Assembly: GCF_003334335.1 (NCBI RefSeq)
Contig: NZ_QOWQ01000006.1
Reading direction: 5' to 3' (one strand)
Length of the DNA: 64,000 nucleotides
Origin: Escherichia coli
GTDB taxonomy: Bacteria > Pseudomonadota > Gammaproteobacteria > Enterobacterales > Enterobacteriaceae
The notes under the pieces were generated by a model that was not told where the DNA came from, ran no database searches, and was given only the letters and a program-made list of their open reading frames with translations. A program made the position numbers and the translations under genes. Positions within the stretch are counted from its first letter, which is position 1. Every line of letters begins with the position of its first letter. Of the stretch, positions 312-51,771 are shown piece after piece.

Positions 312-629
312 TTTTTAACCTCAAGGTGAGACGTTTGCCGACTATAGTACGTCACAGAGCGGTACGGTGAAATTAGCAAAATGTGCAAAGTCTTTTGCGA
401 ATTTAGCAAAAGTCTGATCTTACTCTGACTCACCGATGCAGGATAAATATTTTCTGAAAATGACAATACTGATAGCCATTCCTCATAATTCTTACTCGCA
501 CCGGAATAATTTACACGTTTGGTTCGGTTTTTTTGGGGATTGATAATATGGCTTTGAATAAGTAAAAGATGAAAGTATCAACGTGTCATGTTGATAATTA
601 TAAATGGATTTTTATGAGCGTACTGATAT

Positions 630-962
630 ATGTTAAAGCAGAAAATTAAAACAATATTTGAAGCATTGCTATATATAATGCTTACTTATTGGTTAATAGA
701 TTCTTTTTTTGCTTTCAATAAGTATGACTGGATGCTTGAGTCGGGAGGAAATATTTGCAGTATACCTTCCGTTTCAGGCGAAGATCGTATATTGCAAGCA
801 ATGATTGCAGCATTTTTTCTTCTTACGCCACTTATTATTCTTATCTTAAGAAAACTCTTTATGCGGGAAATGTTCGAGTTTTGGGTATATGTATTCTCGC
901 TCGGTATTTGTCTGGTTTGTGGTTGGTGGCTTTTTTGGGGACGGTTTATATTTTGCTATTAG
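630..962 (+). CDS. ygiZ: small inner-membrane protein YgiZ
   Basis: 110-aa hydrophobic ORF MLKQKIKTIFEALLYIML... matching size and position of ygiZ between mdaB and qseC. Confidence 0.75.
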   Translation: MLKQKIKTIFEALLYIMLTYWLIDSFFAFNKYDWMLESGGNICSIPSVSGEDRILQAMIAAFFLLTPLIILILRKLFMREMFEFWVYVFSLGICLVCGWWLFWGRFIFCY

Positions 963-1007
963 TAAAATCTATGAGAGTCGTTTTAACGGCTCTCATAGAC
1001 AGAGAAG

Positions 1008-3609: not shown

Positions 3610-4092
3610 ATGACAAACCTGACACTGGATGTAAACATTATCGATTTCCCATCAATACCTGTGGCGATGTTGCCGCACCGCTGTAGCCCTGAATTGCTCA
3701 ACTACAGCGTGGCGAAATTTATCATGTGGCGTAAAGAGACGGGGCTTTCTCCTGTTAACCAAAGCCAGACTTTTGGCGTCGCCTGGGACGACCCTGCCAC
3801 CACCGCACCGGAAGCGTTTCGCTTTGATATCTGCGGCAGCGTTAGCGAACCGATTCCCGATAATCGTTATGGTGTGAGCAATGGTGAACTTACCGGTGGA
3901 CGTTATGCCGTGGCCCGCCACGTTGGCGAGCTGGACGATATTTCACACACGGTATGGGGCATCATTCGCCACTGGCTGCCTGCAAGCGGCGAGAAAATGC
4001 GTAAAGCACCGATTCTGTTTCACTACACCAATCTTGCCGGAGGGGTGACAGAGCAGCGACTGGAAACGGATGTTTATGTGCCGTTGGCGTGA
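3610..4092 (+). CDS. ygiV: transcriptional regulator YgiV (GyrI-like effector-binding domain)
   Basis: 160-aa ORF MTNLTLDVNIIDFPSIPVAML... matches YgiV in size and sequence. Confidence 0.85.
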   Translation: MTNLTLDVNIIDFPSIPVAMLPHRCSPELLNYSVAKFIMWRKETGLSPVNQSQTFGVAWDDPATTAPEAFRFDICGSVSEPIPDNRYGVSNGELTGGRYAVARHVGELDDISHTVWGIIRHWLPASGEKMRKAPILFHYTNLAGGVTEQRLETDVYVPLA

Positions 4093-4223
4093 TGCCTGAC
4101 TCCAGCTTCCCTTATAAATTCCTGCTTCAAACTGGCGCTACTAATGCGCCACTTTCTTATATGGTCAATCACTTTCCTTAAAGAATACGTTTTGTGTGGT
4201 CACTATCTCCGTACATCTAACTA

Positions 4224-36178: not shown

Positions 36179-36193
36179 TACATGTTGTAGCAA

Positions 36194-36235
36194 CCCCGTA
36201 CTGATTATGAAGAATAATCAGTACGGGGATTAATC
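36194..36235 (+). terminator. rho-independent terminator after gss
   Basis: ccccgtactgattatgaagaataatcagtacgggg perfect hairpin followed by A/T. Confidence 0.7.
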
Positions 36236-36469
36236 AAAATATTCAATATTTATATATTCCAATATTTATTCATTTCATATGTGAATATATTAACCAGTGG
36301 AATACCTGTGTTTTGATTATTTCTAAAGGTTTTGAATGAATGCTTATTGTCTGATACACAAGAAATAACACTCTTTTTATCGTTAAAAAATGATATTTCA
36401 CTTTGCCCATGCCGTTAAAGTCACTGATAATGCGTCCGTTCGTAAATTCAAAATGGCGTAATCTAATAT

Positions 36470-37969
36470 ATGCTAAATTTATTTGTTGGCCTTGATATAT
36501 ACACAGGGCTTTTGTTATTGCTTGCTCTGGCATTTGTGTTGTTCTACGAAGCAATCAATGGTTTTCATGACACGGCGAATGCGGTGGCAGCCGTTATTTA
36601 TACTCGTGCCATGCAACCACAACTTGCTGTGGTGATGGCGGCATTTTTTAACTTTTTTGGCGTGTTATTGGGCGGACTTAGCGTTGCCTATGCCATTGTC
36701 CATATGTTGCCAACCGATTTGTTGCTGAATATGGGGTCAACCCACGGCCTGGCGATGGTCTTTTCCATGCTGCTGGCGGCGATTATCTGGAACCTGGGAA
36801 CGTGGTTCTTCGGTTTACCGGCCTCCAGTTCGCACACCTTGATTGGTGCGATTATCGGCATCGGTTTAACCAACGCGCTGTTAACCGGCTCATCGGTGAT
36901 GGATGCGTTAAACCTGCGTGAAGTGACCAAAATTTTCTCCTCGCTGATTGTTTCCCCTATCGTCGGCCTGGTCATTGCGGGAGGCCTGATATTCCTGCTG
37001 CGACGCTACTGGAGCGGGACGAAAAAGCGTGACCGTATTCACCGCATTCCGGAAGATCGCAAAAAGAAAAAAGGCAAACGTAAACCGCCATTCTGGACGC
37101 GTATTGCGCTGATTGTTTCCGCTGCGGGCGTGGCGTTTTCGCACGGCGCGAACGACGGACAAAAAGGGATCGGCCTGGTAATGCTGGTACTGGTGGGGAT
37201 TGCCCCTGCTGGCTTCGTCGTCAATATGAATGCGTCCGGCTATGAAATTACCCGTACCCGCGATGCCGTTACCAACTTCGAACACTACCTGCAACAGCAT
37301 CCTGAACTGCCGCAGAAGTTGATTGCGATGGAACCTCCATTGCCTGCAGCATCGACTGATGGCACGCAAGTAACAGAGTTTCACTGTCATCCGGCAAATA
37401 CCTTTGATGCTATTGCGCGCGTTAAAACGATGCTGCCAGGCAATATGGAAAGTTACGAGCCGTTAAGCGTGAGTCAGCGCAGCCAGCTGCGCCGCATTAT
37501 GCTGTGCATCTCTGATACCTCCGCGAAGCTAGCGAAACTGCCAGGCGTCAGTAAAGAAGACCAGAACCTGCTGAAAAAACTTCGCAGCGATATGTTAAGC
37601 ACCATTGAGTACGCTCCGGTGTGGATCATCATGGCGGTAGCACTGGCGCTCGGCATTGGCACCATGATTGGCTGGCGTCGTGTAGCGATGACCATCGGTG
37701 AGAAGATTGGTAAGCGCGGCATGACGTATGCGCAAGGCATGGCGGCACAAATGACGGCGGCAGTGTCTATCGGTCTTGCCAGTTATATTGGGATGCCCGT
37801 CTCCACAACACACGTCCTCTCGTCTGCAGTTGCAGGGACGATGGTGGTGGACGGCGGTGGGTTACAGCGTAAAACGGTAACCAGCATCCTGATGGCGTGG
37901 GTATTTACTTTACCGGCGGCAATTTTTCTTTCTGGTGGGCTGTACTGGATAGCATTGCAGTTGATTTAA
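36470..37969 (+). CDS. pitB: low-affinity inorganic phosphate transporter PitB
   Basis: 499-aa PiT-family [42 protein letters not shown]... Confidence 0.95.
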
Positions 37970-38017: not shown

Positions 38018-38710
38018 CTAGTGATAACCACGCGCGGTCATAAAATCCGTAATCGCTTTTTCTGCATCAACCAACACCTGTTCCAGTGGCTGATTGGCAT
38101 CGATATCAACCAGTTGTGCACCACCAAAGGTTAACTGTGGCGTTATGGCAATCTTCCTCGCCAGCGATTCCCGTTTATGGTCGGGTTTACGTGCACAGGC
38201 AACTTCAAGGTCAACATTGAGTTTGATGACCAGATCAGGCTTATGGCTCGCCATCCAGTGAAACGCTTTACGTTCCTGGCTTGCCAGCCATGAGACAAAA
38301 CGACCACCTTCAACGTTAGGTGGGAACACCGTACCATCGTAAGCGCCAGGAATTTGGTCCTGAGGATAACGGTCGGTTAGAACAATTAACCCGCGACGAC
38401 GACAGGCAAGCATATGACGAAAGCGCAGTAAGCGACGGGCGACAAACGCTGTAATTACCAGCGCCGGAACTGGTCCAGGCAATTTTTTTGCTGTTTTCAC
38501 CTGATTTCGTTCAATTGTTTTATGTAAGGATTTTCCCATCAACGGTAATTTTGTCACTGCACGACCGACATTTCCGGCCTGTTTTCCTAAATGAACTCTT
38601 TCGGCAGCACCATATTTTTCGACAACGGTAATAAGATGTTCACACACCGTTGACTTGCCTGAACCATCGCTACCAATAACGGCAATTAATGGAGGTGTTA
38701 TTGACTGCAT
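38018..38710 (-). CDS. yghT: P-loop NTPase, predicted kinase-like protein YghT
   Basis: 230-aa ORF with N-terminal Walker [10 protein letters not shown]; shares TDRYPQ and RKPDH motifs with yghS and yghR. Confidence 0.85.
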
Positions 38711-38790
38711 GAATATATCCTTTAATTTAAATATCCATTAAAAATATTTATTTGGTTAATATGTTTTTATGAAAGCGTAATTCAGGTCAA

Positions 38791-38814
38791 TGTCACAATT
38801 AACCATTGTCACAA
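38791..38814. promoter_or_regulatory. direct repeat TGTCACAAT x2 in yghT/yghS divergent promoter region
   Basis: tgtcacaattaaccattgtcacaat; the second copy sits in the perfect palindrome ATTGTCACAAT. Confidence 0.3.
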
Positions 38815-38883
38815 TAAGGTTGAACGGATATTCTGAGCACGGACCACGTAATATTCAATACATTATTTACTGCCGGGTTTTTC

Positions 38884-39597
38884 GTGAATCAACGTAATAT
38901 GTCAATAATTAATTCCACGCCAGTGCGTGTTATTGCCATTGTAGGATGTGATGGTTCAGGTAAATCGACCCTCACGGCAAGCCTGGTAAATGAACTGGCA
39001 GCAAGAATGCCAACAGAACACATTTATCTCGGGCAATCGTCCGGGCGAATTGGCGAATGGATTTCACAGCTCCCTGTTATTGGCGCACCTTTTGGGCGTT
39101 ATCTGCGAAGTAAAGCGGCACATGTGCACGAAAAGCCCTCAACACCGCCTGGCAATATTACTGCACTGGTTATCTATCTGCTTTCCTGCTGGCGGGCGTA
39201 CAAGTTTCGCAAAATGTTGTGTAAAAGCCAGCAAGGCTTTCTGCTCATCACCGACCGCTACCCGCAGGTTGAAGTGCCGGGGTTTCGCTTTGATGGCCCG
39301 CAATTGGCAAAAACCACGGGCGGTAACGGTTGGATAAAAATGTTAAGGCAGCGCGAGCTGAAGCTGTACCAATGGATGGCATCTTATTTGCCCGTATTGT
39401 TGATTCGTCTTGGCATTGATGAACAAACCGCGTTTGCGCGTAAACCTGACCACCAACTGGCAGCGTTACAGGAAAAAATCGCCGTTACGCCGCAACTGAC
39501 ATTCAATGGCGCAAAGATCCTTGAACTGGATGGGCGACACCCCGCCGATGAAATTCTGCAAGCGTCACTACGCGCAATTCACGCCGCGCTTTCCTGA
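38884..39597 (+). CDS. yghS: P-loop NTPase, predicted kinase-like protein YghS
   Basis: 237-aa ORF (GTG start) with Walker A GCDGSGKST; paralog of yghT and yghR. Confidence 0.85.
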   Translation: MNQRNMSIINSTPVRVIAIVGCDGSGKSTLTASLVNELAARMPTEHIYLGQSSGRIGEWISQLPVIGAPFGRYLRSKAAHVHEKPSTPPGNITALVIYLLSCWRAYKFRKMLCKSQQGFLLITDRYPQVEVPGFRFDGPQLAKTTGGNGWIKMLRQRELKLYQWMASYLPVLLIRLGIDEQTAFARKPDHQLAALQEKIAVTPQLTFNGAKILELDGRHPADEILQASLRAIHAALS

Positions 39598-40432: not shown

Positions 40433-41782
40433 TTGGCGGGTTTTAACATCAAACATTGGTTTGCAGATGGCGCGTTTCGCACCATTATTCGCAATAGCGC
40501 CTGGTTAGGCTCCAGTAATGTCGTGAGCGCCTTGCTGGGTCTGTTGGCGCTCTCGTGTGCCGGTAAAGGGATGACGCCCGCCATGTTTGGCGTACTGGTG
40601 ATTGTGCAATCGTACGCCAAGTCGATCAGCGATTTTATTAAGTTTCAGACATGGCAACTGGTGGTTCAGTACGGAACACCAGCATTAACCAACAATAATC
40701 CGCAGCAATTCCGCAATGTCGTCTCATTTTCCTTCTCGCTGGATATCGTCAGCGGCGCGGTGGCGATTGTCGGTGGCATTGCCTTACTGCCATTCCTTTC
40801 CCATTCATTAGGTCTGGATGACCAAAGTTTTTGGCTGGCAGCGCTCTATTGCACGCTCATTCCTTCAATGGCTTCCTCCACGCCGACCGGCATTCTGCGT
40901 GCGGTAGATCGCTTCGATTTAATTGCTGTACAGCAGGCGACGAAACCTTTTCTGCGCGCAGCGGGGAGCGTCGTAGCCTGGTATTTTGACTTTGGTTTTG
41001 CGGGTTTTGTTATTGCCTGGTACGTGTCGAATCTGGTTGGCGGCACCATGTACTGGTGGTTTGCCGCGCGCGAATTACGCCGCCGAAATATCCATAACGC
41101 CTTCAAATTGAATCTGTTTGAGTCTGCCCGATACATTAAAGGCGCGTGGAGTTTTGTCTGGTCAACCAACATTGCCCACTCCATCTGGTCGGCGCGTAAC
41201 TCGTGCAGCACAGTGTTGGTGGGGATCGTGTTAGGACCCGCTGCCGCCGGGTTATTTAAAATCGCCATGACATTCTTCGACGCCGCCGGAACGCCAGCGG
41301 GTTTGCTGGGTAAAAGTTTTTACCCAGAGGTGATGCGTTTAGATCCGCGCACCACCAGACCGTGGTTGTTAGGTGTGAAGTCCGGTTTACTGGCGGGCGG
41401 AATCGGTATTCTGGTGGCGCTCGCGGTGTTGATCGTCGGCAAGCCGCTCATTTCGCTGGTGTTTGGCGTTAAGTATCTCGAAGCGTATGACCTGATTCAG
41501 GTGATGCTGGGCGCAATTGTGATTTCGATGCTGGGCTTCCCTCAGGAGTCATTGCTATTGATGGCGGGAAAACAGCGCGCTTTTCTCGTGGCGCAAACCA
41601 TCGCCTCAATCGGCTACATCGTATTGCTGTTCATGTTCTGTCATCTGTTTGGTGTGCTGGGAGCAGCGTTTGCTTACTTCGGTGGGCAATGTCTGGACGT
41701 GGCGCTCTCGTTAATTCCAACCTTAAAGGCATTTTTTCAGCGCCATTCCTTGCTTTATAACGCAGCCGGAGAGAAATCCTGA
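40433..41782 (+). CDS. yghQ: MOP-superfamily (Wzx-like) flippase YghQ, full length
   Basis: 449-aa polytopic ORF; start codon uncertain (track start is TTG); stop overlaps the next gene start (TGATG). Confidence 0.8.
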   Translation: MAGFNIKHWFADGAFRTIIRNSAWLGSSNVVSALLGLLALSCAGKGMTPAMFGVLVIVQSYAKSISDFIKFQTWQLVVQYGTPALTNNNPQQFRNVVSFSFSLDIVSGAVAIVGGIALLPFLSHSLGLDDQSFWLAALYCTLIPSMASSTPTGILRAVDRFDLIAVQQATKPFLRAAGSVVAWYFDFGFAGFVIAWYVSNLVGGTMYWWFAARELRRRNIHNAFKLNLFESARYIKGAWSFVWSTNIAHSIWSARNSCSTVLVGIVLGPAAAGLFKIAMTFFDAAGTPAGLLGKSFYPEVMRLDPRTTRPWLLGVKSGLLAGGIGILVALAVLIVGKPLISLVFGVKYLEAYDLIQVMLGAIVISMLGFPQESLLLMAGKQRAFLVAQTIASIGYIVLLFMFCHLFGVLGAAFAYFGGQCLDVALSLIPTLKAFFQRHSLLYNAAGEKS

Positions 41783-42606
41783 TGATGAGAAAATATTTCC
41801 CGCTTGAGGCGAGCGAGCGTCTATTTGTTGCGATTGAAGAAGATGATGTCGTTGATGCACAGGTTAGTTTGCCGCCGACTATTGCACTAAGTTGTACCAC
41901 CGAAATCATTCATGATAATTACGCGTTATGCCTGCAATTCTGGCTCAATGGCGTTGATCGTCAGGAGTTACTGCGTTTAGTTCGCAAACAAGCCAAAGGC
42001 GATGAGCTGACTGCTGATGAGCGCAAACAATTTAAATACATGCGAGCGCGCTACAAGCACCTGCGTTTTGCGCAACGGCTGTATTTAAAGAAGCATCAGG
42101 CCGGATTTTTATTCGGCAAAACGACCGTTTTTCTGGGGCGTTTTCAGGACGGCTTTCGTAACGGTAAGAAAAATATTGTGTCGTATTACGGCAACCTGTT
42201 ACGGATTTATTTAAGCTCTCCGGTCTGGTCGTTGGTGAACTATTCATTACGCCATAGCCAGTTAGAAAGCGTAAGCAGTTTTATTGCCTATCGGCAAAAG
42301 CAAATGCATACCCTGAAAGAGATTATTGCCAAACCGCGACTAACCGGTAGGGAATTTCATGATGTGCGAAAAATCATCAGCCAGCAGGTTTCTTATTACG
42401 ACACCTTAAGATCGCTTGATCCTGAAAATAAAGAGGCGTTACAGATATCCCGCTTCCTCGCCGCCATTAATGGCCTGATGGGAGATAAACACGACGACAT
42501 GGTGGCGGATGATATGGAAAACCGCCAGTCGTATGATGCACCGGTGGCGCTGGATAGCGATATTCGTCAGCGCTTAGAGCTGCTGATTTCGCGTTTTCCG
42601 CTATAG
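41782..42606 (+). CDS. hypothetical cytoplasmic protein (274 aa), coupled to yghQ
   Basis: ORF MMRKYFPLEASERLFVAIEEDD...; 1-nt overlap with the yghQ stop; no motif I can recognise. Confidence 0.6.
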   Translation: MMRKYFPLEASERLFVAIEEDDVVDAQVSLPPTIALSCTTEIIHDNYALCLQFWLNGVDRQELLRLVRKQAKGDELTADERKQFKYMRARYKHLRFAQRLYLKKHQAGFLFGKTTVFLGRFQDGFRNGKKNIVSYYGNLLRIYLSSPVWSLVNYSLRHSQLESVSSFIAYRQKQMHTLKEIIAKPRLTGREFHDVRKIISQQVSYYDTLRSLDPENKEALQISRFLAAINGLMGDKHDDMVADDMENRQSYDAPVALDSDIRQRLELLISRFPL

Positions 42607-42614
42607 CCGGAGCA

Positions 42615-43178
42615 ATGATGTCATCTCGTTTGATTATTGCGTTGATTATCATGCTCTTAGCCCCGGGTGTGCAGGCACACAATTTCGTCACTGGCAAAAC
42701 GGTTACCCCTGTTTATATCCAGGAAGGCGGCGAGCTGCTTCTGAATAGCGACGACGAAATTCACTACCAAAAGTGGAACAGCACACAATTAGCGGGAAAA
42801 GTCCGCATTATTCAGTATATCGCCGGGCGTAAGTCGGCGAAGAAAAAGAACTCACTGTTAATTAAAGCGGTTGAAGCGGCAAACTTTCCGCAGGATCGTT
42901 TTCAGCCCACCACCATTGTGAACACCGATGATGCCATCTTTGGTACTGGCTATTTTGTTGTTGGCAAAATCGAAAAAAATAAACGCCGCTATCCGTGGGC
43001 GCAATTCGTTATTGACGGCAATGGACAGGGACGCGTTGCCTGGCGCTTGCCGGAGCAGAGTTCAACCATTCTGGTGCTGAATAAAGCCGGGCAAATTCAG
43101 TGGGCAAAGGACGGCAGCCTGACGCCGGAAGAGGTAGATCATGTCATTGCGTTGGCGCAGAAACTGATCAATGAATAA
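42615..43178 (+). CDS. periplasmic YtfJ/HI0045-like protein
   Basis: 187-aa ORF with signal peptide MMSSRLIIALIIMLLAPGVQA and motifs (AGKVRIIQYIAGR, TTIVNTDDAI, QWAKDGSLTPEEV) that I recall from YtfJ. Confidence 0.65.
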   Translation: MMSSRLIIALIIMLLAPGVQAHNFVTGKTVTPVYIQEGGELLLNSDDEIHYQKWNSTQLAGKVRIIQYIAGRKSAKKKNSLLIKAVEAANFPQDRFQPTTIVNTDDAIFGTGYFVVGKIEKNKRRYPWAQFVIDGNGQGRVAWRLPEQSSTILVLNKAGQIQWAKDGSLTPEEVDHVIALAQKLINE

Positions 43179-43208
43179 AAAACTCAAAGGATTGAGGGCG
43201 TTAGTGAG

Positions 43209-44279
43209 ATGAAGCTGGTTGAACACTACATCATGCGTGGTACGCGCCGTCTGGTGCTGATTATCGTCGGTTTTCTGATCTTTATTTTCGCCAGCTACTC
43301 CGCACAGCGTTATCTGACCGAAGCGGCAAATGGGACATTAGCTCTTGATGTTGTGCTGGATATCGTTTTCTACAAAGTACTGATTGCACTGGAGATGTTG
43401 TTACCTGTTGGTCTGTATGTGTCAGTTGGCGTGACGCTAGGGCAGATGTATACCGACTCGGAAATTACCGCTATCTCTGCGGCGGGGGGCAGTCCGGGAC
43501 GCTTGTACAAAGCCGTTCTTTATCTGGCGATACCGCTAAGTATTTTTGTCACCCTTCTGTCGATGTATGGTCGTCCGTGGGCTTATGCGCAGATTTATCA
43601 ACTGGAGCAGCAGTCGCAGTCGGAGCTGGATGTTCGCCAGTTGCGGGCAAAGAAATTTAACACTAACGATAACGGACGAATGATCCTTTCGCAGACGGTT
43701 GATCAGGATAATAATCGCCTGACTGACGCGCTGATTTATACTTCTACTGCCAATCGAACCCGCATTTTCCGCGCCCGTTCGGTTGATGTGGTTGACCCAT
43801 CACCCGAGAAACCGACCGTTATGTTGCACAACGGCACTGCCTATCTTATCGATCATCAGGGGCGTGATGACAACGAACAGATCTACCGTAATCTGCAATT
43901 ACATCTGAATCCGCTGGATCAAAGCCCTAACGTCAAACGCAAAGCGAAATCGGTCACGGAGCTGGCGCGCTCCGTCTTTCCAGCCGATCATGCCGAACTG
44001 CAATGGCGGCAAAGCCGTGGCCTGACCGCATTGTTGATGGCGCTGCTGGCCATTTCATTAAGTCGGGTAAAACCGCGGCAAGGGCGATTTTCAACGTTAT
44101 TGCCACTGACGTTGCTGTTTATTGCCATTTTTTATGGCGGTGACGTCTGCCGTACGCTGGTGGCTAACGGCGCGATTCCCCTCATTCCTGGTTTGTGGTT
44201 AGTACCCGGACTCATGCTAATGGGCCTGCTGATGCTGGTCGCACGCGACTTCTCTTTGCTGCAGAAATTTTCCCGATGA
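43209..44279 (+). CDS. LptF/LptG-family (YjgP/YjgQ) permease, first of pair
   Basis: 356-aa ORF; YTDSEITAISAAG and KPRQGRFSTLLP resemble the LptF motifs YTESEIT and NPRQGR; multiple TM segments with a large periplasmic loop. Confidence 0.75.
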   Translation: MKLVEHYIMRGTRRLVLIIVGFLIFIFASYSAQRYLTEAANGTLALDVVLDIVFYKVLIALEMLLPVGLYVSVGVTLGQMYTDSEITAISAAGGSPGRLYKAVLYLAIPLSIFVTLLSMYGRPWAYAQIYQLEQQSQSELDVRQLRAKKFNTNDNGRMILSQTVDQDNNRLTDALIYTSTANRTRIFRARSVDVVDPSPEKPTVMLHNGTAYLIDHQGRDDNEQIYRNLQLHLNPLDQSPNVKRKAKSVTELARSVFPADHAELQWRQSRGLTALLMALLAISLSRVKPRQGRFSTLLPLTLLFIAIFYGGDVCRTLVANGAIPLIPGLWLVPGLMLMGLLMLVARDFSLLQKFSR

Positions 44280-45355
44280 ATGTTTTCAGCCGCTATTTAA
44301 TCCGTCATCTCTTTCTCGGTTTTGCCGCCGCCGCAGGGCTATTGCTGCCGCTTTTTACCACCTTCAACCTGATTAACGAACTGGATGATGTCAGCCCGGG
44401 CGGTTATCGCTGGACTCAGGCGGTGCTGGTGGTGCTAATGACCTTACCGCGCACACTGGTCGAACTTTCGCCATTTATCGCCTTATTGGGAGGGATTGTC
44501 GGCCTGGGGCAGTTATCGAAAAACAGTGAGCTTACCGCCATTCGCAGCATGGGGTTTTCTATCTTCCGTATTGCACTGGTGGCGCTGGTTGCAGGGATAT
44601 TGTGGACTGTTTCGTTAGGCGCGATAGATGAGTGGGTAGCGTCGCCATTACAGCAACAGGCGTTGCAAATCAAATCGACCGCCACCGCGTTGGGGGAGGA
44701 CGATGACATTACCGGCAATATGCTGTGGGCCAGGCGTGGTAATGAATTTGTGACGGTGAAATCGCTGAACGAGCAGGGCCAGCCGGTGGGCGTGGAGATT
44801 TTTCATTATCGCGACGATCTCTCGCTCGAATCCTACATTTATGCACGCAGTGCCACCATTGAAGACGACAAAACGTGGATCCTGCATGGTGTGAATCATA
44901 AAAAATGGCTGAATGGCAAAGAAACGCTGGAAACATTAGATAATCTTGCCTGGCAATCGGCCTTCACCAGTATGGATCTTGAAGAGTTATCAATGCCGGG
45001 CAATACTTTTTCTGTCCGTCAGCTTAATCATTACATCCATTATTTGCAGGAAACCGGGCAACCCAGCAGCGAATACCGCCTTGCACTGTGGGAAAAACTG
45101 GGGCAACCCATCCTGACCCTGGCGATGATTTTGCTGGCTGTGCCGTTTACCTTTAGCGCCCCGCGCTCGCCAGGGATGGGTAGCCGTCTCGCTGTAGGTG
45201 TCATCGTTGGCTTACTCACCTGGATCAGCTATCAAATCATGGTCAATCTGGGATTGCTATTTGCGTTGAGCGCACCTGTTACCGCGCTCGGTTTACCGAT
45301 AGCGTTTGTGCTGGTGGCGTTGAGCCTGGTGTATTGGTATGACAGACAACATTAA
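44276..45355 (+). CDS. LptF/LptG-family (YjgP/YjgQ) permease, second of pair
   Basis: Start at MNVFSRYLIRHLFLGF via ATGA overlap with the upstream stop; LptG-like motifs (ELTAIRSMGFS, RSPGMGSRLAVG); the track ORF is extended 27 codons upstream. Confidence 0.75.
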   Translation: MNVFSRYLIRHLFLGFAAAAGLLLPLFTTFNLINELDDVSPGGYRWTQAVLVVLMTLPRTLVELSPFIALLGGIVGLGQLSKNSELTAIRSMGFSIFRIALVALVAGILWTVSLGAIDEWVASPLQQQALQIKSTATALGEDDDITGNMLWARRGNEFVTVKSLNEQGQPVGVEIFHYRDDLSLESYIYARSATIEDDKTWILHGVNHKKWLNGKETLETLDNLAWQSAFTSMDLEELSMPGNTFSVRQLNHYIHYLQETGQPSSEYRLALWEKLGQPILTLAMILLAVPFTFSAPRSPGMGSRLAVGVIVGLLTWISYQIMVNLGLLFALSAPVTALGLPIAFVLVALSLVYWYDRQH

Positions 45356-45356
45356 A

Positions 45357-45383
45357 CCCGCCGTGGCGCAACACCACGGCGGG
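45357..45383. terminator. bidirectional hairpin between the permease operon and the SPT-like gene
   Basis: cccgccgtgg-cgcaaca-ccacggcggg inverted repeat. Confidence 0.6.
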
Positions 45384-45459
45384 CTCACATTACTGCTTCA
45401 GAGTAGCAAATGCCTGAATGATGGCATCGATTTGCTCACGACTGTGAGCAGCGTTTACG

Positions 45460-46569
45460 CTACAGCGCAGCAGCGTGATGCCTGCAGGCGCGGCAGGTGG
45501 CAGGTGGCAGGATAAGATTCACATAAACGCCCAGCGAAATAAGCTCGCGCCAGATGCGTAAACCGTCCTCTTTCGAACCGATTATTACCGGCACTACCGG
45601 GCTAATATGTGAACTTAACTCATAACCCAGTTTTTGCAGACCGTCATACAGATGGTTGGCATTATCCATCAGCTTTTGCCGCAGCTCTGGTTGTGTGGCA
45701 ATAGTTCTTAACGACGAGCGCACGGTCGCAATGCAGGACGGAGAAGGAGAGGCGGTAAAAATATACGGGCGGCTGCCGTAGCGCAGCACTTCCATCGCTT
45801 CCGAACCGACAGCAAAACCGCCAATCGAGGCCAGACTTTTACTGAAGGTGCCAACGATAATATCCACATCATCTTCAACGCCGACAGCTTCAGCCAGTCC
45901 GCGCCCCGTTGCGCCTAACACGCCAAACGAATGCGCTTCATCGACAATCAAATAACCACCGAGACGACGTTTGATATCAACAATTTCCGCTAACGGCGCA
46001 ACGTCACCGAGCATGCTGTAGATACCCTCAACGATGATAATCGCCTCTTTCGCCCGTTCACCGAGGCGAACCATGCGCCGTTCCAGATCTTTAGCATCGT
46101 TATGGCGGAAACGAATAATTTCCGCGCCACCGAGAGAACAGGCGTCATAAATACTGGCGTGGCTGTCGGCATCCAGTAACACCACGGCGTTATGGTCGGC
46201 AAGTGCGCTGATGACGCCTAAATTAGCGGTATAACCGGTTGAAAAAACGATAGCGGTAGGGCGATTGAAAAACTCGGCAATCTCTTTCTCTAACGCCAGG
46301 TGCGGCGCATAACTGCCGTTTGCCATACGAGAACCGGTGGTGCCGGTACCTTGGGCCGCTAACGCGGCCTGACCTTCGCTGATGGCATCATGATTAAAGG
46401 TTAAACCGAGATAATTATTGGTCCCGGCCAGAATCACTTTTTTATTGCCGATCCGGCCTTCGGTGGCGGAATACACTTCATCAATACAGGTGCCAAACGG
46501 TGTTAACCCGTTGTCACTAAATTGCAGTCGCTCGCCAGCAAGGCGCGCATATTTATCGTATAGCCCCAT
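45460..46569 (-). CDS. serine palmitoyltransferase-like alpha-oxoamine synthase (PLP-dependent), 3' end apparently frameshifted
   Basis: 369-aa ORF with GTFSKS PLP-lysine motif and class-II aminotransferase fold; C-terminus TCRACRHHAAAL is atypical, and an alternative frame restores a canonical end at the TAA at 45390-45392. Confidence 0.8.
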   Translation of the reverse strand: MGLYDKYARLAGERLQFSDNGLTPFGTCIDEVYSATEGRIGNKKVILAGTNNYLGLTFNHDAISEGQAALAAQGTGTTGSRMANGSYAPHLALEKEIAEFFNRPTAIVFSTGYTANLGVISALADHNAVVLLDADSHASIYDACSLGGAEIIRFRHNDAKDLERRMVRLGERAKEAIIIVEGIYSMLGDVAPLAEIVDIKRRLGGYLIVDEAHSFGVLGATGRGLAEAVGVEDDVDIIVGTFSKSLASIGGFAVGSEAMEVLRYGSRPYIFTASPSPSCIATVRSSLRTIATQPELRQKLMDNANHLYDGLQKLGYELSSHISPVVPVIIGSKEDGLRIWRELISLGVYVNLILPPATCRACRHHAAAL

Positions 46570-46817
46570 TATTTATTCTCCAGCCATGGAAGTAGAGTTT
46601 CCATTAATTGCGCAGGGGTTTTGACATCCAGCAGAATATTAATAGGAATGGAAATATCGAATCTGTCTTCCAGCATCATTAAGAGATCCATCACTTTGAT
46701 CGACTCCAGGCCAAGATCGTTGACGAGATCGCTGTCGGGCTTAATTTCCACACCGTTTTCGACCAAATCCTGTAAACAGGAAAGGATGTAATCCATTACT
46801 ATTTCACGATTTACCAT
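46569..46817 (-). CDS. acyl carrier protein (phosphopantetheine-binding)
   Basis: 82-aa acidic ORF with DLGLESIKVMDL Ser-attachment motif; 1-nt overlap with the downstream SPT-like start. Confidence 0.8.
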   Translation of the reverse strand: MVNREIVMDYILSCLQDLVENGVEIKPDSDLVNDLGLESIKVMDLLMMLEDRFDISIPINILLDVKTPAQLMETLLPWLENK

Positions 46818-46848
46818 AGAAACGTTAACACACCTTTAAACAAGACAA

Positions 46849-47763
46849 TCAAAATAGCCCGTTGCGTAATGCGTGTTCCAGGCTAATCCCGGGAAACCAA
46901 TTAATATCTTCAGAAATACGGTTATTACTTGCCGACCAGTCGGCGTGGGTTAATTCACGAATTTTCGAGCGGGTCAGCATAGGTTCTTTACCTGCCAGGC
47001 GACTCAACGCGGTACTGATATCCGCAAGGCCGGTGAGTACCGGCAGAGGAATGCCAACCATTCGCACGGAACCGCAACGGGCGTCGGCGGCAAGTTGCTG
47101 TACGCGTTGCCAGTCATAGCCGCCGGCGACGCCATCGCATAATTCATAGGTTTGCGTCTGTATAGTTTCGGCGCTTAACCACTGACCCACTGCTTGCGCG
47201 AAATCGGTGACGTGCAGAAAAGAGAGCTGTGTATCTGGCGCACCAAGTCGTGGCAGCAGGCCGCGCAGCATCCAGTCAAACAGCGGTTTTAACTCTTTAT
47301 CGCCGGGACCATACACGGCTGTCGGGCGAAAAACGCCCAGCGTAATTTCGTCCGCCATTGCTGCCAGTCGTTGCTCGGCGACGTATTTGGATTTTGCATA
47401 CCAGGAGAGCTCGGGATGGCGCGCCGCCAGCGAAGAGATAAACAGAAAACGTTGGCAAAAGCCGCTCTCTTTTGCTGCTTGCATCAGGCGCAGGCTGCCG
47501 TCAACGTTACAGCGGGTGAAAATCTCTTCTTTGTGCCCGCGCACTTGCCCGGCGCAATGGACCACTACGCTGGCTCCGGCAACCAGCTCGCTAAGTGAAT
47601 GAGTATCTTCCAGCGAACCGCGCACCCAGGTGAGATTATCATTGACGTGAGCGCGGGCAGTACGCGTCAATGCGCGAACGTGAAAGCCGCGGGCGAGCAG
47701 GTTATCGATAATATATTTACCGATAAACCCGGTAGCGCCCGTCACCGCGACAGTTTGATTCAT
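46849..47763 (-). CDS. NAD(P)-dependent epimerase/dehydratase-family reductase (candidate 3-ketosphinganine/ceramide reductase)
   Basis: 304-aa ORF with VTGATGFIGKYI Rossmann motif and YAKSK catalytic dyad; 4-nt overlap with the upstream adenylase gene. Confidence 0.8.
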   Translation of the reverse strand: MNQTVAVTGATGFIGKYIIDNLLARGFHVRALTRTARAHVNDNLTWVRGSLEDTHSLSELVAGASVVVHCAGQVRGHKEEIFTRCNVDGSLRLMQAAKESGFCQRFLFISSLAARHPELSWYAKSKYVAEQRLAAMADEITLGVFRPTAVYGPGDKELKPLFDWMLRGLLPRLGAPDTQLSFLHVTDFAQAVGQWLSAETIQTQTYELCDGVAGGYDWQRVQQLAADARCGSVRMVGIPLPVLTGLADISTALSRLAGKEPMLTRSKIRELTHADWSASNNRISEDINWFPGISLEHALRNGLF

Positions 47764-49481
47764 GCCAGGGATTCCTGCACATTAAGACTGGCAGCATAAG
47801 CCTTCTGATAACGTTTTTTCGCTTCCGCACGGGCAGGCTTGCCGGAGGACGTTCGGGGAATACTGTGGGGCGGCAACAGATCGATAGCCGCGGTCACGCC
47901 AAATTCGCTTTGGATCCGTGCCGCCAGCGCGTGGATAAGCTGCCCGCGACGTTCTTCGTCGCTGATCCGACACTGGATCTGCAAAATGATTTTTTCCTGG
48001 GCGGTAACAAAAGCAATCGCATCGCCAGAATGAATTTCCGGTTCCTGTTCCGCTATATATTCAATATCCTGCGGCCAGATATTACGGCCACGAATAATAA
48101 TCAGATCTTTAATGCGTCCGGTGACATACAGATAACCGTCCAGCAGATAACCGAGGTCGCCGGTGTCTAACCAGCCCGTCGCGGCAATCTCGTCTTGCGA
48201 AACCTGGTCGCCAAAGTAACCGCTCATCAGACTGGGACCGGAGATGCAAATATGGCCTACCACACGTTCCGCGACCGGCATACCTGCTTCATTGCGGATT
48301 TCAATACCATGTTCCGGCAACGCTTTGCCGCAGTTGACGAAAGTCGATACGGCGCGTGTCTCTGCACCCGGCGCGACGGCTTTACCCTGATATTCGAGGA
48401 TGTCGCGATCCACTTCGTTAACCACAACCCCGGAGGCTTCATCAGAGAAGCTGACAGCCAGCGCATTTTCTGCCAGTCCGTAGCACGGCATGAAAGTTTT
48501 ATTGTCAAAGTTAACCTGACGGAAACATTCAGCGAATTGATGGAGTTGTTCTGCGGAGATGGGTTCTGCACCAATACCAGCGACGCGCCAGCAGGAAAGA
48601 TCCAGTTCAGCGAGATCTTTTTCATTCACGCGGCGCTGGCACAATTCATAGCCAAACGGCGGCGCAACGGAAACGGTGCCGCGATTTTTACTGATCAATT
48701 TAAGCCATTGCAGAGGACGCATGGCAAAATCCTGAGTGCGCAAATAATCTACTGAAAGCTGCGTGGCGACGGGGGTCAGGAGAAAGCCGACCAGTCCCAT
48801 ATCATGGTAGAAAGGCAGCCAGGAGACGCAGCGGTCGCCAGGGCGTAATTTAATGCCGTCGTGGCTTATAGCACGTAGATTAGCCATCACTTCGCGATGG
48901 GTGATAATGACGCCACGGGGAAAACGGGTGCTGCCGGAGGTGTACTGGAGGTAGGCGATATCGTTCGGAACTGGACGCTGGAGCGCAACATCGGCTTCCG
49001 GTAATGCCTTAAACCAGGCGTGGCTTAAAACATGTAATTCGGGGTTGTCATGCGTCGCGGCATTGACCAGTGGCAACCACTCATCACCAGTGATAATGGC
49101 TGCGGGCTGGCAACTTGCCAGTAAACCCTGCAATTTGGCGCTCCAGGAATCCCGCTGACCAACGCCCATTGGAATCGCCAACGGGACGGCGACTAAGCCG
49201 GCATACTGGCAGGCAAAAAAAGCCTCTACGAACTCGCTACTTGTTTCGGCAATCAGTGCCACGCGATCGCCTTTTTTCAGGTTCAGCGATAACAACCGCT
49301 TCGCACCAGCTTCGGCACGTGCTTTTAACGTCTGATATTCCAGTTGATCTTCAAGTTGGCAACGTCTGTCATAAAAATTCATTCCGGCGCTACTCAGAGC
49401 GGCGTAGTCCAAAGCATCAACAAGCGTTGGAAAATCGGCATAGCGCATAGGTAGGGAATGCGTAAAGATTTTATTAGACAT
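47760..49481 (-). CDS. fatty acyl-AMP ligase / acyl-ACP synthetase-like adenylating enzyme
   Basis: About 573 aa with AMP-binding core YTSGSTRFPRGV and TGDLGY motif; start uncertain (track starts at GTG 49490, ATG at 49481). Confidence 0.8.
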   Translation of the reverse strand: MSNKIFTHSLPMRYADFPTLVDALDYAALSSAGMNFYDRRCQLEDQLEYQTLKARAEAGAKRLLSLNLKKGDRVALIAETSSEFVEAFFACQYAGLVAVPLAIPMGVGQRDSWSAKLQGLLASCQPAAIITGDEWLPLVNAATHDNPELHVLSHAWFKALPEADVALQRPVPNDIAYLQYTSGSTRFPRGVIITHREVMANLRAISHDGIKLRPGDRCVSWLPFYHDMGLVGFLLTPVATQLSVDYLRTQDFAMRPLQWLKLISKNRGTVSVAPPFGYELCQRRVNEKDLAELDLSCWRVAGIGAEPISAEQLHQFAECFRQVNFDNKTFMPCYGLAENALAVSFSDEASGVVVNEVDRDILEYQGKAVAPGAETRAVSTFVNCGKALPEHGIEIRNEAGMPVAERVVGHICISGPSLMSGYFGDQVSQDEIAATGWLDTGDLGYLLDGYLYVTGRIKDLIIIRGRNIWPQDIEYIAEQEPEIHSGDAIAFVTAQEKIILQIQCRISDEERRGQLIHALAARIQSEFGVTAAIDLLPPHSIPRTSSGKPARAEAKKRYQKAYAASLNVQESLA

Positions 49482-49857
49482 ATACACCACGAAAAAATTG
49501 GATATCCAAAATAAAATGACAATAATGCGGTGGATTATATAGGCATAAAAGATAAATGAGATAGTATTTTCATCAGTGTGAAAATGAACATTGATTTAAA
49601 TAATGAGTTTGAGTTTTTTTGTTTTTATTGTGAATGATATTTAATTTATGAATATATTAAGAAGAAGCCTTGTCCGGTCGCCTTAAATCGACAAAAGGCA
49701 TTGTGGCGCTTCTGTGTAGTCTCTGACCTTATCGTAATCATTAATAAATACTATTTATTCGTCGTTTGTATTCATTGGGTTGATTATTAAGGTGCCGTTC
49801 GTTGCTGTTGCAACCTGTTTGTCACCGTTAATTATTTGTTACCCACAGAACAGAACT

Positions 49858-51000
49858 ATGGAATGCGATCTGCTGATGATTAAAATTGAAAAAGTAATTA
49901 ATAAAAATGACCTTAAGGCATTTATCGCTTTTCCGTCATCACTTTATCCCGACGATCCAAACTGGATACCCCCTTTATTCATTGAACGCAACGAGCATTT
50001 GTCTGCGAAAAATCCGGGGACGGACCATATCATCTGGCAGGCGTGGGTAGCAAAAAAAGCGGGGCAGATAGTTGGGCGTATTACCGCGCAAATAGATACC
50101 TTGCACCGCGAGCGTTACGGCAAAGATACCGGTCATTTCGGCATGATTGACGCCATTGATGATCCGCAGGTTTTTGCCGCGTTGTTTGGCGCAGCGGAAG
50201 CGTGGTTGAAGTCACAAGGTGCAAGTAAGATCAGCGGTCCTTTCAGCCTGAATATCAATCAGGAAAGCGGATTACTGATTGAAGGTTTTGACACACCACC
50301 CTGTGCGATGATGCCACACGGCAAACCGTGGTATGCCGCGCATATTGAACAACTGGGTTATCACAAAGGCATTGATTTACTGGCGTGGTGGATGCAGCGA
50401 ACCGATCTCACTTTCTCTCCGGCGCTAAAAAAACTGATGGATCAGGTGCGCAAAAAGGTGACCATTCGCTGCATCAATCGTCAGCGGTTTGCCGAAGAGA
50501 TGCAGATCCTGCGTGAGATTTTCAACTCTGGCTGGCAGCACAACTGGGGATTTGTGCCGTTTACCGAACATGAATTCGCGACCATGGGCGATCAACTTAA
50601 ATATCTGGTGCCGGACGATATGATCTATATCGCTGAGATTGATTCTGCACCCTGCGCGTTTATTGTCGGCTTGCCGAACATCAACGAGGCGATTGCCGAT
50701 CTGAACGGATCGCTCTTTCCCTTCGGCTGGGCAAAATTGCTGTGGCGTTTGAAAGTCAGCGGTGTGCGAACTGCGCGAGTACCGCTGATGGGCGTGCGCG
50801 ACGAGTATCAGTTCAGCCGCATCGGCCCGGTGATTGCGCTGTTATTGATTGAAGCCTTACGCGATCCGTTTGCCCGCCGGAAGATCGATGCGCTGGAGAT
50901 GTCATGGATCCTCGAAACCAATACAGGCATGAATAACATGCTGGAACGCATTGGGGCGGAGCCGTACAAGCGTTACCGATTGTATGAAAAGCAGATTTAA
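49858..51000 (+). CDS. yghO: YghO, intact (candidate N-acyltransferase; pseudogene in K-12)
   Basis: About 380 aa from MECDLLMIKIEK (track ORF starts at TTG 49780); divergent from the lipid operon; start uncertain. Confidence 0.7.
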   Translation: MECDLLMIKIEKVINKNDLKAFIAFPSSLYPDDPNWIPPLFIERNEHLSAKNPGTDHIIWQAWVAKKAGQIVGRITAQIDTLHRERYGKDTGHFGMIDAIDDPQVFAALFGAAEAWLKSQGASKISGPFSLNINQESGLLIEGFDTPPCAMMPHGKPWYAAHIEQLGYHKGIDLLAWWMQRTDLTFSPALKKLMDQVRKKVTIRCINRQRFAEEMQILREIFNSGWQHNWGFVPFTEHEFATMGDQLKYLVPDDMIYIAEIDSAPCAFIVGLPNINEAIADLNGSLFPFGWAKLLWRLKVSGVRTARVPLMGVRDEYQFSRIGPVIALLLIEALRDPFARRKIDALEMSWILETNTGMNNMLERIGAEPYKRYRLYEKQI

Positions 51001-51006
51001 TACCAG

Positions 51007-51771
51007 CTAACTCAGGTTCATCTCCAGCGGCACCGCCGAGCGAATCAAATGGTGGCCTTCCAGCTCGATATCGTGGAGATTCTTTTTCACGGTCCGCACA
51101 TGATCGCGTGCTGCGCGCTGGGCGACGTGCGGCAGCCGCTGCAACACCGCGTTGTAGATCCGCGCATGCTGGCGATCGATCTGCTTTTTTTGCTGTGGTC
51201 GATGGTAGAGATTATTTACGCTGGCAAACACTGAATTAAACATCAGATCGGTCAATGATTGCAGCGTAAACACCAGCACCTGATTGTGAGAAGCCTGACA
51301 AATGGCGAGATGGAAAGCGTGATCCAACTGCGCATGTTCGATCAGCGAAATCTCTTTGTTGTTCTCACTGGCGGCGAGCATTTTTTCATAACAGCGGGTT
51401 ATCACAACAAAATCAGCCTGCGTTCCCAGCGTTGCCGCCAGCCTTGCCGATTCGCCCTCCAGTAATGCGCGAACGTCGAGCAGATCGTACAGCGTTCGCG
51501 GCTGCGTACTGAACAGATGGATCAGCGGGCTGGTGTCCTGCACCCGATTAAGCCGTGCGACACGAGAATCGCGACCCTGCGCCGTTTCAATAATCCCGCG
51601 CCCGCGCAGCACGGTCAGCCCTTCACGCAGTGCGGAGCGTGAGAAGCCGAGCTTTTCACACAGTCGACGTTCCGAGGGAAGCGGCTGACCGACCTTCAGT
51701 ACGCCGTCGATAATTAACCGTTCGATACTCTCTGCAACCACTTCGCAAATAGGGCGACGTTCATCTTTCAT
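51007..51771 (-). CDS. glcC: GntR/FadR-family glycolate-responsive activator GlcC
   Basis: Start at MKDERRPICEVVAESIERLI (254 aa); the track ORF is 20 codons longer. Confidence 0.93.
   Translation of the reverse strand: MKDERRPICEVVAESIERLIIDGVLKVGQPLPSERRLCEKLGFSRSALREGLTVLRGRGIIETAQGRDSRVARLNRVQDTSPLIHLFSTQPRTLYDLLDVRALLEGESARLAATLGTQADFVVITRCYEKMLAASENNKEISLIEHAQLDHAFHLAICQASHNQVLVFTLQSLTDLMFNSVFASVNNLYHRPQQKKQIDRQHARIYNAVLQRLPHVAQRAARDHVRTVKKNLHDIELEGHHLIRSAVPLEMNLS

Follow-up and report, generated by a model that had tools for sequence, protein, structure and literature searches.

The right end of the enterobacterial cluster for sphingolipid (ceramide) biosynthesis and transport, with a shared AT-rich control region and an IS5-linked loss in K-12, is very probably what this locus represents. 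It lies in the window, the 64-kb stretch of Escherichia coli DNA analysed here, and its features are listed in Table 1. In the arrangement we propose, an AT-rich spacer of about 370-390 bp would act as the control region common to two divergent transcription units. One of these, aasR-cerR(epi)-acpR-spt, would convert a fatty acid, a dedicated ACP and serine to 3-oxo-sphinganine, and it also encodes a reductase. The other, yghO, would supply a cytoplasmic tandem-GNAT N-acyltransferase attaching the second acyl chain and so forming (oxidised) dihydroceramide. The finding is an ordinary one and largely known, since literature or annotation already covers the gene cluster, the assignment of yghO, the IS5 and the overlapping transcripts at the glcC junction; a 7-bp frameshifting duplication in spt is new here. 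Its significance lies in showing how atypical K-12 is, given that the five dihydroceramide enzymes and a second LptF/G pair are encoded in roughly three of every four complete E. coli genomes.

Table 1. Coordinates of the features discussed, in window positions.
Feature	Position	Strand	Basis
yghQ, MOP-family flippase	40433-41782	+	annotation, family match
Segment missing in K-12, 8,396 bp, with IS5 (1,195 bp) in its place	41502-49897	.	alignment
Hypothetical gene, 274 aa	41782-42606	+	annotation
YtfJ-family gene	42615-43178	+	annotation, family match
Second copies of lptF (43209-44279) and lptG (44276-45355), presumed sphingolipid transport permeases	43209-45355	+	TIGR04407, TIGR04408
spt, serine palmitoyltransferase, frameshifted	45390-46569	-	ORF, alignment with strain 300709, NF047599
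acpR, specialised acyl carrier protein	46569-46817	-	family match, literature
epi/cerR-like NAD-dependent reductase	46849-47763	-	annotation, family match, literature
aasR, fatty acyl-AMP ligase/specialised acyl-ACP synthetase, first gene of the divergent operon	47760-49490	-	NCBIfam NF006624, 872 bits
AT-rich divergent intergenic/control region, aasR-yghO	49482-49875	.	limits vary with the start codons chosen
yghO, tandem-GNAT N-acyltransferase, predicted ceramide synthase (aca/cerS/bCerS homolog)	49858-51000	+	sequence, homologs, AF2, Foldseek, linkage, literature
Gap of 6 bp separating the stop codons of convergent yghO and glcC	51001-51006	.	identical in K-12
glcC, glycolate regulator, convergent with yghO	51007-51771	-	annotation (PGAP) of strain 300709, 100% identical

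An earlier note on this DNA had recognized a divergent lipid operon to the left of the spacer. This is the published aasR-cerR-acpR-spt sphingolipid operon (PMC9386255), and together with yghO it is the published five-gene dihydroceramide pathway, a connection that the note had missed. The acpR gene encodes an 82-aa ACP and lies directly upstream of spt, whose product matches the NF047599 equivalog at 554.9 bits against a cut-off of 500, with the match covering residues 1-360 only. An Spt of the alpha/beta/gamma-proteobacterial type, a dedicated ACP and an acyl-ACP synthetase nearby are the features of a Rhodobacteria-type sphingolipid operon. Three start codons can be considered for aasR (GTG 49490, ATG 49481 and the PGAP choice, ATG 49448), and conservation in other genera supports the first two; the left spacer edge drawn in the earlier note is therefore defensible. 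A literature search on yghQ/R/S returned nothing relevant.

The same locus with the same genes was described in E. coli BL21(DE3) as ECD_02850-ECD_02854 (Padilla-Gomez et al. 2022, PMC9386255), where AasR, AcpR and SPT are active and, when overexpressed, make 3-oxo-sphinganine. The control region, the K-12 breakpoints and the glcC junction lie outside the discussion in that paper. In Caulobacter crescentus, the counterparts are aasR CC_1165, cerR CC_1164, acpR CC_1163, spt CC_1162 and cerS/bCerS CC_1154 (= CCNA_01212), with LptF2/LptG2 (CC_1156/CC_1155) adjoining CC_1154 and the phospho-sphingolipid head-group genes at CC_1159-1161. E. coli and Caulobacter share the five enzyme types and the aasR-cerR-acpR-spt order, and a flippase gene is likewise part of the cluster in this comparison. 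In both, the acyltransferase gene stands outside the operon, and in many taxa it is found beside a second lptF/lptG pair. Unlike in Caulobacter, however, yghO directly and divergently adjoins aasR in E. coli and other Enterobacterales.

As the earlier note had stated, yghO is full length in the window: the ORF runs from ATG 49858 to TAA 50998-51000 and encodes 380 aa, identical to the PGAP protein WP_001300526.1. An alternative start, ATG 49876, would give 374 aa, which matches the homologs of other genera (374 aa), whose start corresponds to this ATG. Scans of YghO against Pfam and NCBIfam gave no match, including no DNA-binding domain, and a sequence search against the PDB returned noise only, while a profile of the family, which is large (6480 representatives at 50% identity), gave weak GNAT matches in the C-terminal half. 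The AF2 model (pLDDT 96.9, pTM 0.93) is wholly alpha/beta and soluble, with no transmembrane segments, and combined with Foldseek it shows all 374 aa folding as two GNAT domains. The best solved matches (E 1e-16 to 1e-12) are tandem GNATs: the MshD mycothiol synthase 1ozp, 2wpw (clavulanate-pathway), 5kf1 (glucosamine N-acetyltransferase) and 7q3a (MAB_4324). These have the two-GNAT fold over the full length at TM 0.53-0.64, but their identity to YghO is just 11-15%, and their acyl donor is acetyl whereas that of YghO is presumably long-chain.

A GNAT-type fold and association with spt, acpR, aasR and cerR characterize bacterial ceramide synthases, and YghO has both. Padilla-Gomez et al. list "aca: CC_1154, yghO ECD_02850" and offer as a suggestion that ECD_02850 "might be" the N-acyltransferase (PMC9386255). 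CC_1154 is CCNA_01212 (cerS), and its Azotobacter ortholog Avin_44290 is 47% identical to it (PMC11324152); YghO in turn is 61% identical to an Azotobacter protein, with a TM of 0.99. The case for homology between YghO and bCerS thus comes from these papers and, indirectly, by way of Azotobacter. Together with fold and gene context, it points to a probable ceramide-synthase activity for YghO, a role that is not necessarily common to every member of the family.

It is very improbable, in our judgement, that YghO is instead a DNA-binding transcriptional regulator or a GNAT acting on a non-sphingolipid substrate such as a protein lysine or an amino sugar. The label "putative DNA-binding transcriptional regulator" given to b2981 in NC_000913.3 speaks for a regulator, but a DNA-binding domain is absent from the profile scans and the two GNAT domains account for the full 374 aa. 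The closest solved folds do acetylate small molecules (glucosamine, mycothiol precursors), and a study that screened E. coli GNATs as possible lysine acetyltransferases included YghO (PMC6199490). However, in the available part of that paper, yghO appears solely in strain and plasmid tables, and the clone tested was the K-12 version, an IS5 chimera. The strong linkage of yghO across phyla with spt, aasR, acpR, cerR and lptF2G2 also counts against both alternatives. Fold and context therefore argue for correcting the MG1655 label and favor the N-acyltransferase assignment.

This linkage was surveyed at 80 loci with yghO homologs from different species, using a 12-sequence alignment for the locus scan. 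Within 10 kb of the homolog, AasR was found at 42 loci, Spt and Epi at 38 each, AcpR at 36 and an LptF/G pair at 47, and 70 of the 80 loci had at least one sphingolipid partner nearby. Four of the ten loci with no such partner nearby are on contigs of 2-9 kb. Three distant YghO representatives were uninformative, two being on short contigs and one on a 27.6-kb contig with no partner gene. The divergent aasR-yghO layout itself occurs at 38 of the 80 loci, from Enterobacterales to Nitrospira and Gemmatimonadota.

Alignment against K-12 shows that yghO is not intact there. Homology stops at about 41501, inside yghQ, and restarts at 49898, 40 nt into yghO; a 1195-bp IS5 fills the gap. On the left, the junction could fall anywhere within 41497-41501, since the C at 41498 is replaced by T in K-12, making a TAG stop in yghQ. 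In K-12 annotation, this element is IS5LO/insH9 (b2981-b2983), a 1195-bp IS5 between yghQ and yghO with the same junctions, and the window holds the undeleted state of this site. The earlier note tied the boundary to the K-12 deletion/IS5 site, but the breakpoint, between 49897 and 49898, falls within the yghO coding sequence; a deletion end in the AT-rich spacer was accordingly rejected. The yghO promoter and first codons fall in the 8,396 bp that K-12 lacks. The earlier note called the gene a truncated pseudogene in K-12: it is 5'-truncated at the IS5/deletion junction, but current annotations give a CDS that starts inside IS5 and is 390 aa long in NC_000913.3 and 378 aa long by PGAP.

The K-12 element is 1195 bp long, has terminal inverted repeats and reads GGAAGGTGCG...CGCACCTTCC. 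It is flanked by TTAG to its left and TTAA to its right, each consistent with the YTAR target preference; since the two are not identical, a target-site duplication is absent, in line with an IS-mediated adjacent deletion. K-12 therefore combines a complete IS5, inverted repeats, YTAR flanks and no duplication, the marks of an IS5-mediated event. In the K-12 lineage, this IS5-associated deletion took 8.4 kb. Beginning at the 3' end of yghQ, it reached codon 8 or 14 of yghO (according to which start is chosen); the entire operon, the control region and the native start of yghO were lost, and a promoter-less remnant was left joined to the IS5 end.

Among 5426 complete E. coli genomes, the cluster segment is present in 4038-4126 (about 74-76%), across phylogroups, and the K-12-type junction in 353. 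The deleted segment has a GC content of 50.2% and the operon 52.3%, and the cluster has syntenic counterparts in Citrobacter, Serratia, Hafnia and Pseudomonas. From the genome-like GC, the prevalence and the synteny, we conclude that the cluster is the majority, ancestral state and K-12 a derived deletion.

The spacer is as AT-rich as the earlier note had described. At 49491-49857 (367 bp), its GC is 31.6% against 51.4% for the window (0.316-0.327 depending on the limits taken), which places it in the lowest 1%: only 0.86% of 367-bp windows across the 64 kb are as low. A and T make up 68% of these roughly 370 bp, A/T-only runs of 8-13 bp are numerous, and four further intergenic regions of the window have similarly low GC. 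A promoter consensus scan found a single, weak sigma-70-like match, fewer than expected by chance. Searches with Rfam gave no match in the spacer or in the yghO/glcC junction, the small ORFs in the spacer are unconserved, and phylogenetic footprinting of six enterobacterial sequences revealed no conserved block except the aasR start. The promoters of both units presumably lie within this region.

How the spacer works is less certain, and the interpretation in the earlier note is partly supported. Its label, an H-NS-silenced accessory promoter, does not hold as stated, given the GC of the segment, its prevalence and its synteny elsewhere. A broader version, in which the spacer is the H-NS-silenced promoter of a horizontally acquired island and H-NS holds off both yghO and the lipid operon, seems to us possible but doubtful. 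An extended AT-rich promoter tract is what H-NS-silenced loci have, and the spacer has one, with many A/T-only runs; H-NS ChIP data show a preference for such composition, with which silencing here is compatible. In BL21(DE3), which has the cluster, expressing SPT alone or just AcpR/AasR left the lipid profile the same as with the empty vector (PMC9386255), which suggests a small contribution of the chromosomal operon in LB at 30 C. However, the same experiments gave sphinganine- and ceramide-like spots made "possibly by intrinsic enzymes", which argues against full silence of yghO and epi. Moreover, the island itself is not AT-rich, the four other intergenic regions equal the spacer in AT-richness, and a recently acquired island would be AT-rich or patchy in distribution, whereas the prevalence across phylogroups and the synteny in other genera indicate that the cluster is no recent foreign acquisition. 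We found no H-NS data on this locus in the literature, and K-12 data cannot cover DNA that K-12 has deleted.

It is quite possible, though somewhat short of an even chance, that the AT-richness has no special regulatory meaning and that the spacer is a usual long divergent promoter region with weak or conditional expression through ordinary activators. AT-enriched spacers occur at the 38 loci with the same divergent gene pair, in varied GC backgrounds and in organisms without H-NS, with a median GC 10.6 points under that of the locus. The five comparable low-GC spacers in the window fit this reading, as does the poor conservation of the spacer sequence from genus to genus and even among divergent lineages of Escherichia. 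On the other hand, GC falls by 12-25 points in the Enterobacterales spacers, roughly double the median for other taxa, which leaves room for an enteric-specific nucleoid-protein effect; some repression by nucleoid proteins at the spacer may operate.

At the other end of yghO, its stop codon lies 6 bp from that of the convergent glcC (TAG, 51007-51009, minus strand), as the earlier note had observed. Folding of both strands gave no terminator-like hairpin at or near either stop, with unremarkable z-scores, and the two weak hits of a terminator scan lie at a distance from the stops and are at or below chance. A very short spacer with no intrinsic terminator is typical of a convergent excludon. 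In the published MG1655 excludome, glcC-yghO is recorded as such a convergent pair in at least 50% of 58 transcriptomes (PMC12288877), so that the transcript collision proposed in the earlier note has independent support from overlapping transcription. With ends 6 bp apart and no intrinsic terminator, the yghO and glcC transcripts would read into each other. The MG1655 data may not carry over to strains with the island, because yghO transcription in K-12 must start in or beyond IS5.

Taken further, these observations would fit most wild E. coli having a complete but conditionally silent ceramide pathway, with the AT-rich region as a switch (repression by H-NS or a comparable protein, induction on envelope or nutrient cues) and antisense read-through out of glcC further gating yghO; the sphingolipid-free reputation of the species would then stem from the K-12 deletion and laboratory conditions. 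We consider this extended picture speculative and, as a whole, unlikely. In the literature on the cluster, we found no report of a sphingolipid from unmodified E. coli. The control region and the terminator-less glcC junction are the obvious places to seek conditions that induce the pathway.

The source strain itself departs from the BL21 cluster in spt. The gene carries a private tandem duplication of 7 bp (at about 45505-45511) and is out of frame after about codon 351; its ORF ends at 45460, so that it encodes 369 aa rather than 390; because the duplication shifts the offset, the 3' end of the remnant falls at about 45390. The other four genes of the operon and yghO set are intact. With spt frameshifted, the pathway may be non-functional in this strain despite the intact yghO. 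The duplication was found in none of 4085 genomes. Independent partial losses of the cluster occur elsewhere, involving IS1 in 55989, IS26 in KFu015 and an IS-less deletion in M159-1.

The locus around yghO is a sphingolipid (ceramide) gene cluster in which yghO encodes a putative ceramide synthase, an identity that the earlier note missed and that is already in the literature. The BL21(DE3) copy of this locus was the subject of Padilla-Gomez et al. (2022, PMC9386255), in which ECD_02851 is aasR, ECD_02852 epi, ECD_02853 acpR and ECD_02854 spt. Overexpression of the locus genes led to 3-oxo-sphinganine, with AasR, AcpR and SPT activity, and 'yghO ECD_02850' was given as a homolog of Caulobacter aca (CC_1154), an N-acyltransferase needed for dihydroceramide (PMC9386255). 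CC_1154 corresponds to CCNA_01212 (cerS; bCerS in Stankeviciute et al.); the Caulobacter cluster contains LptF2/LptG2 and a flippase, and the Azotobacter ortholog is 47% identical to CC_1154 (PMC11324152). An Azotobacter protein shares 61% identity with YghO at a TM score of 0.99. YghO would N-acylate the long-chain base.

The window is E. coli chromosome, and strain 300709 (NZ_CP025903.1) is 100% identical to it over 49000-51300. The annotation of that strain gives the order hyb, yghU, gss, pitB, yghT, yghS, yghR, yghQ, a hypothetical gene, a ytfJ-like gene, lptF and lptG, followed on the minus strand by spt, an ACP gene, a NAD-dependent epimerase/dehydratase-family gene and a fatty acyl-AMP ligase gene, and then by yghO (plus), glcC (minus), glcDEFGBA, sslE and gsp. 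The NCBIfam equivalog for serine palmitoyltransferase, NF047599, recognises Spt with 554.9 bits (cut-off 500); the fatty acyl-AMP ligase model gives a neighbouring protein 872 bits, and both permeases hit equivalogs, one for LptF and one for LptG. YghO itself matched nothing in Pfam or NCBIfam. Its AlphaFold2 model, for which 85 diverse homologs were used, has very high confidence (pLDDT 96.9, pTM 0.93) and predicts a tandem GNAT fold. The best solved matches in Foldseek (E 1e-16 to 1e-12) were the clavulanate-pathway tandem GNAT 2wpw, the glucosamine N-acetyltransferase 5kf1, MAB_4324 (7q3a) and the mycothiol synthase MshD, and a family profile gave weak GNAT matches in the C-terminal half. 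The label of a DNA-binding regulator carried by MG1655 b2981 found no support, the predicted fold containing no DNA-binding domain.

Features of the yghO locus and AT-rich stretches in the window
Feature	Coordinates	Strand	Remarks
Segment deleted in K-12	41502-49897		8,396 bp
spt	45390-46569	minus	7-bp tandem duplication CCTGCCA at ~45505-45511 relative to strain 300709; ORF end 45460
aasR start, PGAP	49448	minus	
aasR candidate starts	ATG 49481; GTG/ATG at 49490	minus	
Divergent spacer	49491-49857		367 bp, 31.6% GC
yghO	ATG 49858 to TAA 50998-51000	plus	380 aa, PGAP WP_001300526.1
yghO alternative start	ATG 49876	plus	374 aa, MIKIEKV...
glcC stop	TAG 51007-51009	minus	6 bp from yghO stop
AT-rich intergenic stretch	~244-1049		low GC around 363
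AT-rich intergenic stretch	35959-36682		low GC around 36134
AT-rich intergenic stretch	38435-39068		low GC around 38502
AT-rich intergenic stretch	60328-61102		low GC around 60591

Comparison across genera makes two annotated starts look doubtful. In Serratia, Citrobacter, Pluralibacter, Pantoea and Erwinia, the homologs of YghO are 374 aa long and start at the counterpart of ATG 49876. It is this alternative start that is kept across genera, rather than the PGAP start (PGAP being the annotation source of 300709). The aasR N-terminus (MSNKIFTHSLP...) encoded upstream of the PGAP start is kept in Serratia, Citrobacter, Pseudocitrobacter and Hafnia. Both candidate aasR starts are conserved in other genera, so the left edge that the earlier note gave the spacer is reasonable.

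The duplication in spt throws the reading frame off after about codon 351, leaving 369 aa instead of 390. The duplication was present in 0 of 4085 complete E. coli genomes containing the stretch, and the best match in every one of them had 93.1% identity with a 7-nt gap. It is either an inactivating mutation private to the strain or a sequence error; in both cases, having yghO intact is no guarantee that the pathway here is intact too.

The alignment to K-12 proposed in the earlier note placed the breakpoints. Both records compared (GM4792 and MG1655 NC_000913.3) follow the window up to 41501, within yghQ, and from 49898 onward, with >99.9% identity, and a complete 1195-bp IS5 (IS5LO/insH9) lies between. 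IS5 prefers YTAR targets. The flanks of this copy, TTAG and TTAA, both fit but are unlike each other, with no target-site duplication, as is characteristic of deletions associated with an IS. At position 41498, K-12 has T instead of C. This change produces the TAG that closes the truncated yghQ right at the IS5 junction, turns the left flank into a YTAR site and leaves the left junction ambiguous by ~4 bp. The right junction falls within yghO, 40 nt from the start of the 380-codon reading frame and 22 nt from that of the 374-codon one, and not in the AT-rich spacer. K-12 lacks the entire spacer, the native yghO start and the first 7-13 codons. The truncated pseudogene of the earlier note was essentially correct in substance but is outdated as a label: current annotations give yghO as a CDS starting at in-frame ATGs inside IS5: PGAP has 378 aa, and b2981 (YP_009518815.1, 390 aa, 'putative DNA-binding transcriptional regulator') starts 70 nt inside the element.

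The divergent spacer is as AT-rich as described, against 51.4% GC window-wide; only 0.86% of 367-bp windows within the window are as low. Four more intergenic stretches are similarly low (minimum GC 0.28-0.35 over 367 bp). The spacer would house the divergent promoters of aasR and yghO. Apart from the aasR start, cross-genus comparison found no conservation of its sequence, and this control region evolves much faster than the adjoining genes. In E. coli SCPM-O-B-8794, a divergent Escherichia lineage whose YghO is 96% identical, the central spacer (window 49600-49860) is strongly diverged and the coding flanks remain similar to the window.

While these observations of the earlier note were confirmed, its interpretation of the spacer as an H-NS silencing site in an accessory island is unproven and partly contradicted, and we regard silencing as possible but rather doubtful. 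Base composition of the spacer alone is compatible with it. Moreover, expression of single pathway genes in BL21 gave the same lipid profile as the empty vector (PMC9386255); this points to poor expression of the chromosomal operon in LB at 30 C and lends silencing weak, indirect support. However, the island is neither AT-rich nor recently acquired, spacers of comparable composition are common, and we found no H-NS data on this locus in the literature.

The intact cluster is, furthermore, the majority and ancestral state. Among 5426 complete genomes, a coverage of 80% or more is reached by 4126 for the 2.3-kb segment around yghO and by 4038 for the 12.5 kb spanning yghR to glcD, with ST131, ETEC and STEC lineages among the latter. 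The K-12 type of IS5-yghO junction occurs in 353, and in 665 the whole 12.5 kb is without a match. The cluster decays repeatedly, parts of it having been lost independently in strain 55989 (a deletion that reaches from acp into glcC, with IS1 between the two truncated genes), M159-1 (an IS-less deletion from ytfJ into aasR) and KFu015 (IS26 after yghS, followed by unrelated annotated genes: BCCT transporter, DUF2254, TetR-family).

The short gap between the yghO and glcC stops was borne out by the stop coordinates and is identical in K-12. On neither strand did terminator scanning or folding reveal a terminator-like hairpin at the stops or close to them, and the folding energies were unremarkable (z-scores 0.13 and -1.75), and no Rfam match was found across the spacer and the convergent junction. 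Read-through from each gene may run antisense into the other; glcC-yghO is among 165 convergent excludons seen in at least 50% of 58 MG1655 transcriptomes (PMC12288877). The genes downstream of yghO differ by genus (dgkA-like in Serratia, deoC-like in Citrobacter), indicating that the cluster ends at yghO and that the tight glcC junction is an Escherichia feature.

Linkage to the pathway extends well beyond Escherichia. With one genome taken per species, we found 80 yghO-homolog loci (44-96% identity) in Enterobacterales, Pseudomonas, Nitrosomonas, Nitrospira, Gemmatimonadota, and delta- and alphaproteobacteria, and sought partners within 10 kb of them by tblastn with the window's proteins. 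At least one partner was present in 70 of the 80: AasR in 42, Spt in 38, Epi in 38, AcpR in 36 and the LptF/G pair in 47. Four of the 10 partnerless loci lie on contigs of 2-9 kb. The divergent aasR-yghO layout is retained in 38 loci, with a median spacer of 640 bp and spacer GC a median 10.6 points under locus GC (a drop of 12-25 points in Enterobacterales). Shimwellia pseudoproteus carries a pair of yghO paralogs, at 84% and 75% identity to the query; one of them belongs to the full cluster, and the other has no sphingolipid partner within 10 kb. A YghO-like domain also occurs in longer proteins, namely the AFDB entry A0A9E6RH89 (752 aa) and the homologs P0132 (630 aa), P0191 (940 aa) and P0121 (784 aa). 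In P0121, which has no sphingolipid neighbours, two stretches match the query, perhaps through tandem duplication. One longer protein, found in Chenggangzhangella, bears the annotation LptF/LptG family permease and may be a gene fusion of the acyltransferase to the second Lpt permeases.
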